A stretch of DNA of 38,099 nucleotides, from the NCBI RefSeq assembly GCF_003334335.1, contig NZ_QOWQ01000042.1; one strand, 5' to 3'. The notes beneath the pieces were generated by a model. The model had not been told where the DNA came from. It did not search any database and was given only the letters and a program-made list of their open reading frames with translations. How positions within the stretch are numbered: position 1 is the stretch's first letter; each line of letters starts with the position of its first letter. The DNA comes from Escherichia coli (GTDB lineage: Bacteria; Pseudomonadota; Gammaproteobacteria; Enterobacterales; Enterobacteriaceae). Positions 1 through 8,500 of this stretch are shown here, piece by piece. The position numbers and the translations under genes are program-made.

Positions 1-137
1 GCACCATCACGGTATGCCGTGGTGTGGTTACCTTCTTTTTCGTCAAGAAACTGGTCGAGGATTTCAGGCGCAGAAGCACCTGTGGCAATCATCGCCAGAA
101 CGGCTACCGATAAACCATAGTGGAGTTTCCTGCTCAT
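1..137 (-). CDS. SAR-type endolysin (lysozyme), N-terminal 45 codons; gene runs off the window start
   Basis: Minus-strand ATG at 137..135 gives MSRKLHYGLSVAVLAMIATGASAPEILDQFLDEKEGNHTTAYRDG: a hydrophobic signal-anchor-release segment followed by a lysozyme-like start, 4 nt after the holin stop. Confidence 0.8.
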   Translation of the reverse strand, partial: MSRKLHYGLSVAVLAMIATGASAPEILDQFLDEKEGNHTTAYRDG

Positions 138-141
138 CAGC

Positions 142-357
142 TTACTCTCCCCGCGCAGCTTTGCGCCGGTCTTCTTTAATCTTGAAATACAGATTCGTCA
201 GGTATGTCAGGAACCCCAGACACAGGCTCCCCAAAACCCCGATAGCAGCCCACTGTGACGGAGTAACCTGATCCAACCACTGTAGAAACCAGTAACCCGC
301 ACTGCCCGCAGAAGTACCATAGGCTATGCCCGTTGATATTTTTTCCATCTGATACAT
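142..357 (-). CDS. class II pinholin (phage 21 S21 / EssD-like holin)
   Basis: 71-aa product [30 protein letters not shown]...[13 protein letters not shown] matches the S21 pinholin as recalled, with two TM segments and a charged C-terminus, directly upstream of the SAR endolysin. Confidence 0.85.
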
Positions 358-433
358 ATCCCCGCCCCGACAGACCTGTGCTACCGGAAATAAAAAAGGC
401 CATCAGTGTTTTACTGATGGCCCTGCCCCGCCG

Positions 434-724
434 TTACAGCATTGTGCCCGGTTCGGGTTGTGTGTCTGTCATATCCGTCACCGGTGACTCCGGCTGAATA
501 TCACCATTTTCCGTGGTGACATCTTCCGCCTGTGGTTCCGGAAGCAGTTCCGGGGATGGTTCCGGCTGTGCACCAAGCAATTCATCCAGAATTGAATCCA
601 CTTCTGCATCAAGACGCGCCTCAAGGTTCTGCCGAAGTTGCTGTTTCAGTGCGCTCCGGACTTCTTCAGAGCGCAGGACTTCCTTCACTGCCTCAGCAGT
701 GACCAGCGATTTTATTTCTGACAT
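434..724 (-). CDS. hypothetical acidic protein in the lysis cassette (97 aa from internal Met)
   Basis: ORF 434..898; start placed at MSEIKSLV (cat at 722-724). Charged N-terminus and Pro/Glu-rich C-terminus. No family recognised. Confidence 0.4.
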   Translation of the reverse strand: MSEIKSLVTAEAVKEVLRSEEVRSALKQQLRQNLEARLDAEVDSILDELLGAQPEPSPELLPEPQAEDVTTENGDIQPESPVTDMTDTQPEPGTML

Positions 725-749
725 AGGATTTTCTCGTTGAAAGGGGTTA

Positions 750-944
750 TTAAGAAGGTTGTTCCGGAATGAGTGGGGCTTCTGTTTTTGCTCCGGCTGA
801 CTGAGTGGCGCTGATTTTCTCAGCGGCCCTTTTGTCAATCTGTCTGCGCCAGAAGTCGCGTACTGCCCTGTATCCACCCGAAAGCAGATACAACACACAG
901 ACCACCGTACAGAAGTACAGCATTAACTGGTTGATGAATGTCAT
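750..944 (-). CDS. hypothetical small membrane protein (64 aa)
   Basis: One hydrophobic segment (LMLYFCTVVCVLYLLSGGY) followed by a basic stretch. Sits between the esterase gene and the holin. Weak RBS. Confidence 0.35.
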   Translation of the reverse strand: MTFINQLMLYFCTVVCVLYLLSGGYRAVRDFWRRQIDKRAAEKISATQSAGAKTEAPLIPEQPS

Positions 945-1084
945 GGTTTATTACCGTTACTGTTGACAATGAGAACTGTTTTCATTTAGAAATGATTGAT
1001 GTCGAAAGCATCCTTTCGTTAGATTCTCCATTGGGATTACCTCCGCCAGTCTCCATTCCTGTTGCTGGCGGTTTTTTTCGTCTG

Positions 1085-3058
1085 TTATGCTGCTACGGCA
1101 TTCACACCAACAGTAAGACTTTCAATCAGCACAGGGTAAGTTGCCGCATTTCCGGTAATATCCGTAATTGCCAGCGCGTTGGCCTCAAAGGCTGCATTCG
1201 TCCATCTGGTCAGCGTAAACGGTTTTCCTGCTGCATTATCAAGCACCGGCGTGACGTTCAGCGAGCCACCACCCGGGAAGCGGAAAGTCAGCGTGTGCCA
1301 GTCGTGACCGAACGGACCATAACTACCAAGCCGCTGTGATGTGGTGTTTGCATGATACATCACATTGATGTTTGTTTTATCAGTCTGCAGATAGAAGGCC
1401 GCAATATAACCCTCCTCTGATTCCGCTCCCGGCCATCCACTACCGCGCCAGTAAATACCCGCAGAATATTGATTTGCAGAAGCATTGAGAGATACATCAT
1501 CGGGGATTTTAAAGCGCAGCGTGATTTCACCGCCGTTATCGAACAGCTCCTTCCCCTTACCGGCATCAATTGCGTGCGATACTTTCCAGGTCTTTTTCTG
1601 TGCAAGACCATTTTCTGGTTTTTCAAGACGAAGGGCTTTTTTACCTGAACCACTGTCACTGACCAGCGTGTTTTTGACATCTGTCAGCGTCCAGCCCTGC
1701 GAAGCCAGAGCGGCATTTTCCGCATTCACATCATAAGCCAGCACTGACTGTATCTTTGTCGGGACAACGGCTTCAGGCTGAGTATCGCCACTCTCCTGTG
1801 CTGGTTGCGATACGCCTCCGCCTGAAGAAACCGCGGCTTTTGTCACTTTCCCGGAAACAAAATCTGCCACTCTGCCCACATGCAGAAGAATGGCTGTTGC
1901 CAGACGGTCGGAAATAATTCCGCGACGCGCCCATGAACCAAAGTGGGTTTTACGATCGGATGTTGTCCAGCTCTTCGCATCCGTTCGTCCACCGGAACCA
2001 TAATACCCGATAGCCGGAATATCCGGGTCTTCTGACGGTTCATTGGTCCCGACTTTCTGACCATTGTCATCCATCATAAACGGCACAAAGAAGATATTTT
2101 TACCGGCTTTGGTTTTGTATGCGCCATAGACGGCATCGTATTGCGCTGAATACGTCTCCTTCCAGTAGTACGTCGTGTCACCACAAATCCAGGGCACCAG
2201 AGAAGGAGAAGCACCAGCGCACTGACCGGATACTCCCGCCAGGTCAGAACGGTATTTTTCCACCATGGCATCAAACATGGCGGGCTGACTGGCGTACGCT
2301 CCCTGTTTTAAATCAAACTCGCCCTGCATCCAGACAACACAAAGCAGTATGTTTTTGGGGTTTGCCTTCAGCGCGGCCTGAGTGCGTGTCAGCAGGTCTT
2401 TATACAACGGCTTATCAACGCCCCATCGTTCAGATTTATCCGACGCTCCTGAACTTTCACTGAACGTTCCGTCAGCACCGGCTGTAAACGCAGAGCCACC
2501 ACGACAGCACGGCACTAACAAAATACCCGCATTTTCCGGCATAAAGGGCAACAGCTTTTTGGCAATATGCAATCCCTGTCCGACACACCCATACTGCTCT
2601 GCGCTGGCTTTCGGATGAGAAAAACGGCTCAAATCCTGCACATCATGCAGGCAGTGGTCCGCCGGAATGATGTCGTTATATGCACAGGCCGCACCACCCG
2701 GTGTCACCGTACTGCGACGCGCCAGCTGTTTAATACGCGGGTCCGGACGGTCATATGTCTCCGGCAGCGGCAGGCCTTCACCATACGCCATGCCGTTTGA
2801 CTGTCCGGCCAGCGCAATGACAAAGTAATATTCTGGTTCAACAACAACAGTCCGGGTACCATCTCCCCCCGGTGAAACTACCGGAGAGGTCATATCCCCT
2901 TCAGCGACTATAGCCTGGATAAATTCAGCACCATAACCCGCGTTTGAGATAATCGGACTACCATAGGGTTGCCAGCCTTCCTTCAGTTTTTGCGTCAGTT
3001 TTCCTGCGAGGTCTGACGGCGATGATGCCCTGACCACGTCATAGTGTTTAAATGCCAT
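1085..3058 (-). CDS. nanS-p: NanS-p-like sialate O-acetylesterase (DUF1737 N-terminus plus SGNH-type esterase), prophage cargo
   Basis: 657 aa from MAFKHYDVVRASSPSDLAGKL, with GGAGG 5 nt upstream of the ATG at 3058. The N-terminus matches the DUF1737 signature of the large ORF that lies between the Q region and the lysis genes in Stx-type lambdoid prophages, as recalled. Confidence 0.8.
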   Translation of the reverse strand: MAFKHYDVVRASSPSDLAGKLTQKLKEGWQPYGSPIISNAGYGAEFIQAIVAEGDMTSPVVSPGGDGTRTVVVEPEYYFVIALAGQSNGMAYGEGLPLPETYDRPDPRIKQLARRSTVTPGGAACAYNDIIPADHCLHDVQDLSRFSHPKASAEQYGCVGQGLHIAKKLLPFMPENAGILLVPCCRGGSAFTAGADGTFSESSGASDKSERWGVDKPLYKDLLTRTQAALKANPKNILLCVVWMQGEFDLKQGAYASQPAMFDAMVEKYRSDLAGVSGQCAGASPSLVPWICGDTTYYWKETYSAQYDAVYGAYKTKAGKNIFFVPFMMDDNGQKVGTNEPSEDPDIPAIGYYGSGGRTDAKSWTTSDRKTHFGSWARRGIISDRLATAILLHVGRVADFVSGKVTKAAVSSGGGVSQPAQESGDTQPEAVVPTKIQSVLAYDVNAENAALASQGWTLTDVKNTLVSDSGSGKKALRLEKPENGLAQKKTWKVSHAIDAGKGKELFDNGGEITLRFKIPDDVSLNASANQYSAGIYWRGSGWPGAESEEGYIAAFYLQTDKTNINVMYHANTTSQRLGSYGPFGHDWHTLTFRFPGGGSLNVTPVLDNAAGKPFTLTRWTNAAFEANALAITDITGNAATYPVLIESLTVGVNAVAA

Positions 3059-3259
3059 TATTCCTCCCGGCAGGGATAGTGTATGCAATCAAGATAAGGT
3101 GCGGGCTGACGTCAGTCATGGACAAGGGTTCAGAAACAGGAGGATGACTACAGCCCGCAATACGAAAAAGACCATACAGTTGCGCAGAGTGATTACTATC
3201 AGGTATTATTCGCCAGCTGAAAATTGATCACTTCACGTTTTGTTGTTTATTCCTTGCCA

Positions 3260-3288
3260 CCCGCGCTTCCCGGCGCGGGCTTTTTTTT
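3260..3288 (+). terminator. intrinsic terminator hairpin readable on the plus strand
   Basis: cccgcgc-ttcccg-gcgcggg followed by TTTTTTTT. Back-to-back with the minus-strand terminator at 3301-3320. Confidence 0.45.
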
Positions 3289-3290
3289 AT

Positions 3291-3320
3291 CCAACAAGAA
3301 AGCCCCTCCGGAGAGGGGCT
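3291..3320 (-). terminator. intrinsic terminator in the late leader (copy 1)
   Basis: Perfect 8-bp stem agcccctc/gaggggct with a 4-nt loop; on the minus strand it is followed by TTCTTGTT. Confidence 0.5.
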
Positions 3321-3560
3321 GGAGAGTAGCGCTATGTACCGTTCATGCATGGTGCAGGGTGCCTCCCGGTGAGTTCAGTATCAGCACCTGAACCCGCACC
3401 AGAAAGGATAAGGGGTGTGACCAAACACCTGTCGCTGATATGCCCCTCCGCACAGGGGGATTCACCATGCCATATTTTTTTAACAAACTTCCCGCTGGCC
3501 AGACAATAATCGCCAGCCTGAATTGTGAGTAACGTGGCATTTTACGGGAAAACTGTTTTC

Positions 3561-3590
3561 TGCAGTAAAAAGGCCCGCCGGAGCGAGCCT
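3561..3590 (-). terminator. weaker terminator-like hairpin (partial repeat copy)
   Basis: aggcccgccggagcgagcct is an imperfect version of the 3301/3784 hairpin; followed on the minus strand by TTTTACTG. Confidence 0.3.
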
Positions 3591-3773
3591 GGAAGGATAG
3601 CGGTCATGTGATGCCGGTTTCCCGGTAACTCAGCATCGGTATCTGAGTCAACGTTTTCTCTACTGGGTCATTTCCGATACGTTCCGCCTTCCGGCAGACT
3701 TTCATCACGTCAGAAAATATAGCACCCTGAGTAACAGGACAGTACTCAGAATTCAGGAAACTGTGACACATCC

Positions 3774-3803
3774 TGCACAGAAAAGCCCCTCCGGAGAGGG
3801 GCT
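3774..3803 (-). terminator. intrinsic terminator in the late leader (copy 2)
   Basis: Hairpin agcccctccggagaggggct identical to 3301-3320; followed on the minus strand by TTTCTGTG. Confidence 0.5.
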
Positions 3804-4315
3804 GAAGTATAGCCTAATTTCTGTCTGTCGCATGGTGCCAGGTGCCTCCCGGTAAATTCAGCCTGGCTACTGAATTTGCATGTTCGCTGGATCATACACT
3901 TTGCCAGATGCCCCGCCGCTGAGGGGGATTCACCACGCGATGCAATTTTTAACAAATTCTCCGGCAGCCAGACAATCATCAAGCTGTGGAATTGTGAGGT
4001 ATTTAAAAATTTCGCAGCCTCTTGCCACCCGCTTTTCACAAAAATCGTATGTAGAAGGCCGCAGCGTAACTATCACTGATGAATTCAGGACACCCAGAGG
4101 CTACGGCTCAGTTTGGATTGTGGCGGCCGGAATCGAACCAGCTCCCATCGGTGCGCTGCCGATTACAATACGCGCGGCGATCCGCTACATGACTAGTATT
4201 TTCACAGTCGCCTGTCTGCTAGCTCGCCATTGAGCTTCACCACAACGATAAGAGCACTGCGCACACCTTTCACCAATTCCACGAGGTCTGCGGGTTCAAT
4301 GCTCTTACCTGTTGT

Positions 4316-4348
4316 GCAAACAAAAAGCCCCGACATTTCTGCCGAGGC
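4316..4348 (-). terminator. tR'-like terminator of the short late leader transcript
   Basis: Minus-strand hairpin ggcctcggcag-aaat-gtcggggc followed by TTTTTGTTTG, then TGCACAACAGGTAAGAGCATTGA, which matches the lambda sequence just past tR' as I recall it. Confidence 0.5.
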
Positions 4349-4455
4349 CTTTACCTAATCTAGCCAGTATGCCGATCCTAAATATTATCGACGACCGAGG
4401 TAAATCAGGATTTCTCTTTCGCTTCTCAGTGCGCTTTTGCTCCGAGCATACACAA

Positions 4456-4484
4456 AACATACTACTTTCATTTCTCGAAAGCAA
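4456..4484 (-). promoter_or_regulatory. candidate late promoter (pR' analogue)
   Basis: Minus strand: TTGCTT, 17-bp spacer, TATGTT, about 30 nt after the Q-position gene stop and about 130 nt before the tR'-like terminator. Motif-based only. Confidence 0.3.
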
Positions 4485-4508
4485 CGCATTTACAAAAAAT
4501 ATTTTGCA

Positions 4509-5123
4509 TCATCCAGCAATCACTAGAAGTTCTTTCTCCAATTCTCGCTTCATTGCATAAAACATTTCTGAATCAAGGACCCTCTCGCACCACACGACCC
4601 GCCTCCGGCAATACTGAATATCAACTCCTGTTATCTGAGAAATCATCCTGGCGATATCTTGCGTGCTGTCGCGATTGCAATATCGCCTAATAGCTACATC
4701 ACGGACAGGGCTTTCACGATGAAAGGTCTCAACCATCACACGTTCAACGAAAGCAGCATCATCGGATTCTTTGGCGAGAGCAATGATATTACCTGCCGAT
4801 GACTGAGGGATGACCAGTTCTCGGGCTTTCTGATGGAGTTCATCTCCACGTAGTCCGTCTTCTTCATACAGACGCATGACAACAGACTCAATCTGCTTAG
4901 CTTTGTCATCGCTCCACTGACTGCGAATCATCAGTCGCCCAATAACGTTAATTGCACCACAAGGAGAATCATCACCAGCGTTAACATTTCCCCATACCTG
5001 TAGCATGTAGTGAACCCATGCTTTCTGACGAGAGTTAATGATTTTCTTCGGATGCCTCCATATGCGGCGGAAATGAGCATCATTAATAAAGTTAACCATG
5101 CCGAATACTGGGGTTAGCCGCAT
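4509..5123 (-). CDS. putative late-gene regulator occupying the Q position (204 aa, C-terminal HTH-like segment)
   Basis: Last gene before the late promoter/leader. C-terminal STQDIARMISQITGVDIQYCRRRV resembles a sigma-region-4/LuxR-type HTH. Not similar to lambda Q as recalled, so the call is positional. Confidence 0.4.
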   Translation of the reverse strand: MRLTPVFGMVNFINDAHFRRIWRHPKKIINSRQKAWVHYMLQVWGNVNAGDDSPCGAINVIGRLMIRSQWSDDKAKQIESVVMRLYEEDGLRGDELHQKARELVIPQSSAGNIIALAKESDDAAFVERVMVETFHRESPVRDVAIRRYCNRDSTQDIARMISQITGVDIQYCRRRVVWCERVLDSEMFYAMKRELEKELLVIAG

Positions 5124-5365
5124 CACAGCCCCCATCCTTTACAATGACACCACACTTCAAACATTCGTTTCACAACTTCACGGCAGTAGAAACCGTCAGC
5201 ATCACGTGTCAGGTCATAGCGATCTCCGTGCTTCAGTCTCATATAGCATTCGAATAATCTGTTCATATACTCTTCGCCATGAACTCCGCTATTACGCTGC
5301 TCATGCGCTTTTCCAGACGACCTGAATAAAGCCATGCGTTCAGGCACCTGCTGAATATCACGCAT
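5123..5365 (-). CDS. hypothetical Cys/His-containing small protein (80 aa) coupled to the Q-position gene
   Basis: MRDIQQVPERMALF...CREVVKRMFEVWCHCKGWGL. Its stop overlaps the next start (TGATG) and its start overlaps the ninH stop (ATGCGTGA). Confidence 0.4.
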   Translation of the reverse strand: MRDIQQVPERMALFRSSGKAHEQRNSGVHGEEYMNRLFECYMRLKHGDRYDLTRDADGFYCREVVKRMFEVWCHCKGWGL

Positions 5366-6880: not shown

Positions 6881-7555
6881 TCAGAATTCAAATTGTCTTG
6901 CCCGCAGGCTTTTCAGCATTGGCATGGCCCGCTGGATAACGGAACTTGACATGTCGAGACGTGTTACCTCCCTTAGTAGCGCGTCTCTGTTCTTCGTCAC
7001 CATGTAGATGGTCTCAAACGCAATGTCATACAGCTTGTTCGTGTATGAGGAGTTCAGCTCTTTCATAATGGGATACAGGTGTTTGCTGAGGTCCTGGGCT
7101 TTTTCCATCCAGAGCTGCATGTAGCAAAGGAGGATGATTTCTTCGGCTGTGAATTGTGGCTGAATCTGCGGCTGCTGTTCGGTTGGTGCTGTTTTTCCCT
7201 GGCTGAAATAGCAGTCTTCCAGTTTTTCGAACACTTCCCACGCCTGATCGGTTTCTAGCATTTTTGCGTGGCGGGCTGCGCCTCGTTCTGTCCAGAGGAT
7301 GAGCGAGCGGGTTTTGGGAGAGATTTTCACCTCATTTTGCGACTCGTTTAAAACTAGTCGCAAATTTCTGAGTTCATCACCAACAGCTTTAAAGAAGTGC
7401 TTTCCCTCAATAAACCGAGATTTATTTTCATGGTGATTCTGCTGTATACGGATTGTTTCTGTTCCATAAAGGCGGGCAAGCAACTCAGTTGTGATTACCG
7501 GAATCTGGTTATAGGTAACAGGGGAAAGGTTTTTGACAGAGATTTGAACAGTCAT
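6881..7555 (-). CDS. ORF6N-domain protein (antirepressor-like DNA-binding N-terminus, unknown C-terminus)
   Basis: N-terminus contains NHHENKSRFIEGKHFF and ILWTERGAARHAKMLETDQAWEVFEKL, hallmarks of the ORF6N/KilA-N-type fold. GAGGT RBS upstream of the ATG. Confidence 0.6.
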   Translation of the reverse strand: MTVQISVKNLSPVTYNQIPVITTELLARLYGTETIRIQQNHHENKSRFIEGKHFFKAVGDELRNLRLVLNESQNEVKISPKTRSLILWTERGAARHAKMLETDQAWEVFEKLEDCYFSQGKTAPTEQQPQIQPQFTAEEIILLCYMQLWMEKAQDLSKHLYPIMKELNSSYTNKLYDIAFETIYMVTKNRDALLREVTRLDMSSSVIQRAMPMLKSLRARQFEF

Positions 7556-7716
7556 AACGACCTCGCGTTTCGATAATTTTTACCTCACCACCTTCAGGTG
7601 CTAATCATAGTGGTGGCGAACTGTGCGGGGTTAGCACTACCGGTCGAAACATCCGGCGAGCCTTTCGGCTCCCCCACACAGCCCGCCATAAATCGCGAAT
7701 GTGACTGTGCTTAGCG

Positions 7717-7740
7717 CATAAAAAAACCGCCAGCGCGGTT
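7717..7740 (-). terminator. intrinsic terminator on the early-right strand
   Basis: Minus strand: aaccgcgctggcggtt followed by TTTTTTT, between the cargo island and the ORF6N gene. Confidence 0.45.
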
Positions 7741-7820
7741 ATGCACCGTTTCGATATCCGGGGTGCTAATCCCGACGCCAGATTTTGCTGGCGTGCGAAG
7801 AATATAATCCCGGATATGTG

Positions 7821-7860: not shown

Positions 7861-8202
7861 ATGTTTACTCTCATAAACTACATTATCGAATACTACAGTG
7901 ACGAGGTTGAAGCTGAGATCCTTTCTCTTCCTGAGACCTTACAAGCCCGGTACATTCGGTACACGGAGAAAATGCGTATTTACGGAGCTAATCTTGGTTC
8001 CCCGCATACAGAGGCATTTGGCGACGGTTTGTTTGAAATCCGCCTTAAGGGCTCGGAAGGCATAGGGCGTGTTTTTTACTGCACGCTAAAAGGAAAGCGA
8101 ATCATTATGTTGCATAGCTTTGTAAAGAAAACGCAAAAAACTCCACCTGCCGAGCTTAGAAAAGCTGAAACCAGAATGAAGGAGGTTAAGCATGACTGGT
8201 AA
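7861..8202 (+). CDS. gp49-like RelE/HigB-family toxin (DUF891-type)
   Basis: 113 aa with GDGLFEIRLKGSEGIGRVFYCTLKGKRIIMLHSFVKKTQKTPPAELRKAE, the gp49/HigB-like motif. Overlaps the downstream HTH gene by 11 nt. Confidence 0.7.
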   Translation: MFTLINYIIEYYSDEVEAEILSLPETLQARYIRYTEKMRIYGANLGSPHTEAFGDGLFEIRLKGSEGIGRVFYCTLKGKRIIMLHSFVKKTQKTPPAELRKAETRMKEVKHDW

Positions 8203-8500
8203 ACGTACCCCACCTACCATGACACACGATGAAATGGTAGAAAAAATGTTGTCTAACCCCGCAGTAAAAGCAGAATACGACGCCATCGCCGATGAATTCG
8301 CACTACTTGATGAAATGCTGGCAGCACGAAAAGAAGCTGGCTTAACCCAGGCTGAAGTTGCTGAACGTATGGGAACAAAAGCGACTGCGATAACCAGAAT
8401 GGAAAGCAATCTTGCATCAGGTACAAGCGGCCCATCATTTGCCACACTGAAAAAATTCGCCCGTGCTACAGGGAAAAAACTCCAGATCCGCTTCGTTTAA
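8192..8500 (+). CDS. XRE-family HTH antitoxin (HigA/gp48-like)
   Basis: 102 aa; EAGLTQAEVAERMGTKATAITRMES is an XRE-type HTH. Toxin-first gene order with overlap. Confidence 0.7.
   Translation: MTGKRTPPTMTHDEMVEKMLSNPAVKAEYDAIADEFALLDEMLAARKEAGLTQAEVAERMGTKATAITRMESNLASGTSGPSFATLKKFARATGKKLQIRFV

Follow-up and report, generated by a model that had tools for sequence, protein, structure and literature searches.

Introduction

The best-described relatives of the gene considered here are the NanS-p esterases of Shiga toxin (Stx) phages, with gp84 of phi24B (vb_24B_21) and NanS-p of 933W (Z1466, 933Wp42) as prototypes. For other alleles of this family, esterase activity on Neu5,9Ac2 and on O-acetylated mucin glycans has been reported, and a benefit to lysogens is its documented role (PMC8065619). 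The phi24B protein gp84 has also been reported to be a structural capsid decoration protein, among the most abundant proteins of the virion. By cryo-electron microscopy, its DUF1737 domain was seen as a hexamer that plugs the hexon at the centre of each face of a T=9 capsid. Tyr42 serves as the anchor, and what follows about residue 54–57 is clipped from the protein (bioRxiv 10.64898/2026.04.10.717836). Here we describe a nanS-p-type gene in a 38,099-nucleotide stretch of Escherichia coli DNA (contig NZ_QOWQ01000042.1; the whole stretch is referred to as the window).

The explanation that we favour, and consider probable when taken as a whole, is that the gene belongs to a 933W/phi24B-like (Sepvirinae-type) lambdoid prophage and is its conserved late gene, encoding a NanS-p orthologue that is displayed on the virion and released at lysis. 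NanS-p is routinely listed as metabolic cargo beside stx; both the order of the genes and the phi24B structure of 2026 instead favour a late gene that is structural and conserved.

An intact gene for a three-domain esterase

The features of the gene are as follows.

1085..3058, minus strand: nanS-p-type esterase coding sequence, 657 aa plus stop (ATG 3058..3056, TAA 1087..1085)
3088..1085, minus strand: open reading frame (ORF) as bounded by a TTG codon, 667 aa from the TTG
3068..3061, minus strand: Shine-Dalgarno sequence GGGAGGAA, 4 nt before the ATG, read from the sequence
2897..3058, minus strand: DUF1737 domain, putative capsid anchor (aa 1–54; Pfam; Tyr42 and Gly54 conserved)
1868..2836, minus strand: SGNH/SASA catalytic domain (aa 75–397; 3PT5 match and motif positions)
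1088..1750, minus strand: C-terminal lectin-like DUF6645 domain, a divergent variant (aa 437–657; 6YP6 match)

The true start is the ATG at 3058, since a Shine-Dalgarno sequence precedes it and all 63 distinct homologues share the N-terminus M-[ATVS]-[FI]-KHYDVV (MAFKHYDVV in the window protein); the TTG at 3088 merely bounds the ORF. The Shine-Dalgarno sequence GGGAGGAA is unchanged across 30 homologous leaders.

A preliminary description of the window, made from the letters alone, had called this a DUF1737-esterase gene of 657 aa and proposed a profile search for DUF1737 and an SGNH hydrolase. Both the reading frame from ATG 3058 and the Pfam matches bear it out: DUF1737 (PF08410), itself a NanS-p trait, was found at aa 3–53 (1.4e-16), SASA at aa 83–274 (5e-9) and DUF6645 (PF20350) at aa 508–618 (1.5e-25). 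A search of the PDB matched aa 71–391 to E. coli NanS/YjhS (3PT5, 3e-118, ~65% identity) and aa 438–653 to the C-terminus of NanS-p (6YP6, 3.5e-42). The protein belongs to PHROG 143 (3e-298); NCBIfam gave no match to it.

The catalytic blocks can be read directly and are complete, comprising GQSNG (85–89), RGGSAF (186–191), MQGEFD (244–249) and R369-K-T-H372, all essentially invariant in 64 alleles. The blocks given for 3PT5 are GQSNA, RGGSAF, MQGEFD and R-x-S-H (PMC10792757), and the window esterase agrees with them in the nucleophile Ser (of GQSNG), the oxyanion residues, QGE and the catalytic His, H372. In the C-terminal domain, whose jelly-roll fold was judged from sequence, Y531, Y536, Y556 and F624 align with Y510, Y515, Y540 and F611, the phi24B residues proposed for sugar binding (PMC10462455). 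Because the domains, the catalytic blocks and the aromatic sugar-site residues are all present, we read the gene, from its sequence, as an intact phage-borne NanS-p orthologue, a sialate O-acetylesterase of three domains. The protein has no signal peptide, so it would leave the cell only through lysis.

A late protein that is probably capsid-borne

The anchor loop of the window's DUF1737 domain, AGYGAEFIQ, is identical to that of phi24B, and Tyr42 and Gly54 are conserved; past the domain, the linker has TSP/VSP where phi24B has SISSP. The nearest phage relative, PhiR5_2 (PV340546), is 99.6% identical to the window over positions 1–5200. Its structural (head) module is colinear with that of phi24B, and the two phages have major capsid proteins of 95% identity. 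The same head module is found in a prophage of E. coli G1/2 that matches 25 kb of the window at 98.8%. By analogy with phi24B, the esterase is probably a conserved late, structural and capsid-borne protein whose enzyme also benefits lysogens. The gene had been described at first as a known class of prophage cargo. The NanS-p class is indeed well known, but with phi24B gp84 reported as a capsid decoration protein, the word 'cargo' becomes doubtful. It is probably too narrow a label here, because the anchor Tyr42 is kept and the capsid protein of the nearest phage relative is 95% identical to that of phi24B.

Several points weigh against this interpretation. The window holds no head genes, and its capsid type is taken from that of its relatives (the phi24B type has T=9 and a major capsid protein of the N4-gp56 family). 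Capsid decoration has been described in a single preprint, for an orthologue only 58% identical to the window protein (bioRxiv 10.64898/2026.04.10.717836). A predicted corollary of the capsid anchor failed: among eight phages, the three types of DUF1737 loop do not track capsid type. Type A was found with the Sepvirinae major capsid protein (phi24B, PhiR5_2), type B with two capsids (lambda-E-type and EH1846-type) and type C also with two (the ASU11-type major capsid protein and that of the Traversvirus Stx1 phage NC_004913). A strict association of loop type with capsid type was therefore dropped, types B and C each occurring with two kinds of capsid. Furthermore, the late promoter pR' to which we would assign the gene is a candidate matching 7/12 positions, and no other known domain exceeds 52% identity to the C-terminal domain, whose ligand may therefore differ.

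Gene order and the cargo question

The left 5 kb of the window form the late-gene end of a lambdoid prophage. On the minus strand, along which it is read, the order, observed directly, is a Q-like antiterminator, ~1.4 kb without long ORFs that contain three STnc100-family units, the esterase, DUF1378, DUF826 and a holin. The neighbouring protein-coding genes are these.

4509..5135, minus strand: Q-like late antiterminator gene (PHROG 753, 3.5e-68)
944..750, minus strand: DUF1378, downstream late gene
724..434, minus strand: DUF826, downstream late gene
357..142, minus strand: class II holin S, downstream late gene

The location in the late region ahead of the lysis cassette, as first described, is thus confirmed, the gene lying between the antiterminator at 5135..4509 and the DUF1378/DUF826/holin S genes at 944..142. 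Its supposed place in the slot that carries stx is contradicted by the gene order of Stx phages. Rfam scans of phi24B and Stx2_EH1846 gave the order Q, three tRNAs, stxAB, STnc100, AsxR (opposite strand), nanS-p, with stxAB upstream of the STnc100/AsxR pair and nanS-p downstream of it in one and the same phage. Because stx and nanS-p coexist on either side of the small-RNA (sRNA) pair in Stx phages, the esterase lies outside the stx slot. A 'conserved hypothetical phage ORF' beyond the moron site was noted by Tree et al., 2014 (PMC4104026); this ORF is nanS-p.

These observations bear on whether the gene is classical lysogenic-conversion cargo, that is, a moron whose selected role is metabolic, supporting growth of the lysogen on 9-O-acetylated sialic acid, with its presence in the virion being incidental. 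The NanS-p alleles of EDL933 and O104:H4 are active and needed for growth on Neu5,9Ac2 (reviewed in PMC8065619), and the occurrence of up to 7 copies per E. coli genome fits a benefit of dosage. However, nanS-p is a conserved ORF outside the moron site that coexists with stx and is kept at this position across phages with differing cargo. Neither a promoter nor a terminator of its own sets it apart as a self-contained moron, the flanking terminators face the other way, and its GC content (50–53%) is like that of the genes around it. The reported function of the N-terminal domain as a capsid anchor, and the lack of a signal peptide with exit by lysis only, also argue against such a role. We therefore consider it doubtful that cargo describes the gene adequately, while noting that a metabolic benefit is compatible with, and not exclusive of, a virion-displayed late protein.

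Convergent small-RNA genes upstream of the esterase

The interval between Q and the esterase, and the segment just past the esterase stop codon, contain the following RNA genes.

3290..3499, minus strand: STnc100/PasD-family sRNA unit (Rfam RF02076, 129.9 bits; terminator 3320..3301)
3564..3739, minus strand: degenerate STnc100-like unit (Rfam 30 bits, below the gathering score; repeat family D1)
3775..3968, minus strand: second full STnc100/PasD-family unit (Rfam 138.7 bits)
3180..3288, plus strand: small gene in the AgvB/AsxR (anti-sRNA) position (TTGCGC 3180–3185, 18-nt spacer, TATTAT 3204–3209; terminator hairpin 3260–3279 plus T8)
963..1078, plus strand: second opposite-strand small unit (perfect TTGACA 963–968; terminator 1043–1071 plus T7; from sequence and fold)

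The preliminary description had noticed a bidirectional terminator pair in the 5' region of the esterase. The pair is real, consisting of the plus-strand hairpin 3260–3279 with T8 and the minus-strand hairpin 3320..3301, but it belongs to two convergent sRNA genes and is not the esterase's own. It is the convergent sRNA pair already known, the anti-sRNA position being taken here by a gene of a third sequence class. At the equivalent spot in related loci, Rfam identifies AgvB or AsxR, abutting STnc100 and 150–205 nt upstream of the esterase ATG. Alignment showed that the 3180–3288 gene shares with the AgvB/AsxR genes a promoter of invariant TTGCGC, 17–18 nt and TATTAT or TAAAAT; its transcribed part of ~70 nt and its terminator are unlike theirs and form a third sequence class, with a GU-rich 5' part, GUUUUGUUGUUUAUU. 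This variant is also present in related loci (L015, L019 and others) and, unannotated, in 701 of 5426 complete E. coli genomes. In Rfam searches, both opposite-strand units gave weak Esr41-like or other matches far below gathering scores, and the AgvB and AsxR models did not match the 3180–3288 gene.

The second opposite-strand unit converges on the esterase stop codon and is conserved in 33 distinct nanS-p loci, with a varying hairpin; its Rfam match is a weak Esr41-like one only. It probably occupies the PasA/PasC position of bioRxiv 10.64898/2026.05.13.724894.

Three STnc100-family units stand in tandem in the window, and related loci have one or two. We also observed CTCACAATTC ~21 nt upstream of each full STnc100/PasD unit. 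The space equivalent to the tRNAs and stx holds a tRNA-like fragment and the two extra STnc100 units. The fragment, a tRNA-like 3' sequence GGTTCGATTCCGGCCGCCACA at ~4147–4077 on the minus strand, lies where related phages carry three tRNA genes. It was rejected as a tRNA, as ARAGORN called none and the tRNAs that related phages carry show no homology to it.

A conserved leader hairpin and the route of expression

A long inverted repeat had been noticed by eye in the 5' region of the gene, at about 3130–3180. There is indeed an inverted repeat, although its arms lie at 3100–3114 and 3145–3159; it is not especially long, and it carries no promoter signal.

3100..3159, minus strand: conserved 5'-leader stem-loop (arms 3100–3114/3145–3159), 42–101 nt upstream of the ATG

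Its arms are 15 nt, 87% complementary, around a 30-nt loop; repeats of this size are common by chance, with 44 pairs in 1.7 kb of the region. Both an outer stem of 8 bp and an inner stem of 4 bp are retained in 30 distinct nanS-p leaders; 98% of the cells of the alignment are paired, and five pairs are altered on both sides, as compensatory changes. None of 500 shuffles reached the observed values and no slid register came close, a comparison somewhat favourable to the hairpin since the structure was derived from the same 30 sequences. The fold energy of the leader is unexceptional (z = -0.94), so that support for the hairpin comes from conservation and covariation only. The loop is pyrimidine-rich and includes CCUCC, which, we speculate, could pair with the Shine-Dalgarno sequence. 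We conclude that 3100–3159 is a conserved leader RNA element, possibly with a role in processing, stability or translational control; it is no evidence for a promoter.

The hairpin and the terminator pair had been taken to suggest that the esterase may also be expressed independently of late transcription; on this reading, they would insulate and drive a separate transcription unit. Consensus and relaxed scans of the coding strand between 3300 and 3059 found no sigma-70-like promoter above 8/12, and the candidates were not conserved in homologues. The sole conserved promoter in the interval points the opposite way, and the terminators are those of the sRNA genes. Basal nanS-p mRNA can be detected in cultures without induction (PMC10462455), and a conserved leader hairpin followed by a strong Shine-Dalgarno sequence might suit a separate unit, but basal mRNA can be explained by spontaneous induction, and published quantitative PCR shows nanS-p rising by 1–2.4 logs upon mitomycin C induction (PMC10462455). 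The suggestion is thus unsupported, and we regard independent expression as very unlikely. A candidate for pR' lies just past Q (TTGCTT at 4484, 17-nt spacer, TATGTT at 4461; 7/12), with a terminator-like hairpin at ~4350–4318.

Proposed role

The integrity of the gene, its domain homologies and catalytic motifs, the order of the genes and the RNA genes beside it are results of the sequence analysis; we infer the expression route, capsid binding and enzyme activity of this allele. The gene would be transcribed within the Q-antiterminated late transcript, which would read through the terminators of the three STnc100/PasD-type units and on into the leader hairpin and the strong Shine-Dalgarno sequence, so that induced cells alone would make the esterase. 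Its DUF1737 domain, judged by its homology to phi24B gp84, would form a hexamer bound in the pore of the central hexons of the capsid. The SGNH esterase would take 7/8/9-O-acetyl groups off sialic acids such as Neu5,9Ac2, and the lectin-like jelly-roll domain would probably target glycans. Displayed on the virion, later clipped (by analogy) and released at lysis, the enzyme would de-O-acetylate mucin sialic acids, which could be of help to the phage in mucus and could make the sugar available to lysogens that survive.

A virion-borne esterase might instead modify the receptor, deacetylating O-antigen or an O-acetylated capsule to assist adsorption, in the manner of the deacetylating tailspikes known from other phages. 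This possibility was raised in PMC8065619, and the C-terminal lectin domain is highly variable among alleles, as is often the case in receptor-binding modules. The catalytic domain, however, has the sialate-specific NanS as its closest match, the phi24B protein is located on the capsid and not on the tail (bioRxiv 10.64898/2026.04.10.717836), and no result here ties alleles to host serotype. A receptor-modifying function is, in our view, hardly probable at all.

A rare allele of mosaic make-up

The identical protein is in RefSeq as WP_000874521.1, 'SASA family carbohydrate esterase'. The exact allele (≥99%) occurs in 20 of 5426 complete E. coli genomes, and other nanS-p alleles (60–90% DNA identity) occur in 1160, with up to 7 copies each. 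Compared with 63 distinct IMG/VR alleles, the esterase is a mosaic: its DUF1737 domain has 81% identity to the phi24B type and its catalytic domain up to 86% to a different clade, and for the C-terminal domain no non-identical allele exceeds 48%. The window's C-terminal domain was found in 2 of 50,697 phage records, with 340 others below 60%. An exhaustive search of 1.84 billion cluster representatives gave 25 relatives of this domain, the best at 52%, and a word-indexed protein search with it gave 3 matches only. Judging by these comparisons, the protein is another member of a known family, in which the lectin module alone is unusual.

A more specific reading is that the virion-displayed enzyme combines a phi24B-type DUF1737 anchor with a divergent lectin domain whose glycan target is unlike that of characterised NanS-p proteins. 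We think this unlikely, though conceivable. If true, the lectin domain would be a swappable specificity module, and the esterase would determine where in mucus the phage particles adhere, or which sialoglycans are open to harvest by kin of the lysogen. In any event, the divergent domain is a reasonable pick for comparing glycan specificity among NanS-p variants.

Just past DUF1737, the linker contains a run of six C (2864–2869; G6 on the coding strand). The PhiR5_2 esterase gene differs from that of the window solely by a seventh C in this run, and the resulting frameshift parts DUF1737 from the enzyme; the extra C may be a homopolymer sequencing error. A recurrent or programmed split of the gene after DUF1737 was considered and rejected, as the other 'x2' or differently named annotations proved to be overlapping spurious ORFs or full-length coding sequences.

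The rest of the prophage

To the right of the late genes, the window holds the early region up to an integrase at ~22.9–24.05 kb, and host genes from there to its right end. The integrase adjoins a truncated ynfG (~22890–24600), the prophage being inserted in ynfG. At 7609–7807 on the minus strand, beside an ORF6N antirepressor gene (7555..6881), we found a C4 antisense RNA (76.5 bits), isrK (75.8 bits) and c4 a1b1 targets; together they form a c4-ant immunity module of the P1/P7 type within a lambdoid prophage. The nin region (~7866–8493, plus strand) encodes a RelE/ParE-family toxin and a helix-turn-helix antitoxin, annotated HigB/HigA in PhiR5_2. In the otherwise near-identical G1/2 prophage (L093/L094), RefSeq flags frameshifts in all of the terminase, portal and capsid genes, which looks like an assembly error rather than decay.

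Comparison with known systems

The family, the layout of the locus and the exact protein (WP_000874521.1; PhiR5_2) are already public, and the gene is of little importance in itself. What the window adds is a non-Stx prophage of a commensal or uropathogenic-type E. coli with the same module, without the toxin.

The window protein shares with NanS-p of phi24B and 933W the same three-domain architecture, the N-terminus MAFKHYDVVRA..., the SGNH blocks and the four aromatic sugar-site residues. Its gene likewise follows the STnc100/anti-sRNA pair and precedes DUF1378, DUF826 and S, and the nearest relatives of the window have the same type of phage head as phi24B. Relative to gp84 of phi24B, it is 58% identical overall; by domain, the identity is 81% for DUF1737 (residues 1–54), 73% for the catalytic part and 41% for the C-terminal one. 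In contrast to the phi24B and 933W proteins, it is 12 residues longer and has a longer second linker, and its locus has no stx or tRNA genes upstream and a different Q protein.

With the chromosomal NanS (YjhS, 3PT5), the window esterase shares the unusual SASA motifs, GQSN, RGGSAF, QGE and a His without the block V Asp. Chromosomal NanS, however, lacks both DUF1737 and DUF6645, and its gene is a member of the host's regulon for sialic acid catabolism and not a phage late gene.

The RNA genes upstream resemble the convergent pair of the PR' moron site (AgvB/AsxR, Tree et al., 2014; PasD/STnc100 family), in which STnc100 is likewise abutted by an opposite-strand gene of ~70 nt that has a homologous promoter and its own terminator and lies 150–230 nt upstream of the esterase ATG. 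They differ from that pair in that the transcript and terminator of the window's small gene match neither Rfam model, and in having three tandem STnc100 units where the AgvB/AsxR locus has one.

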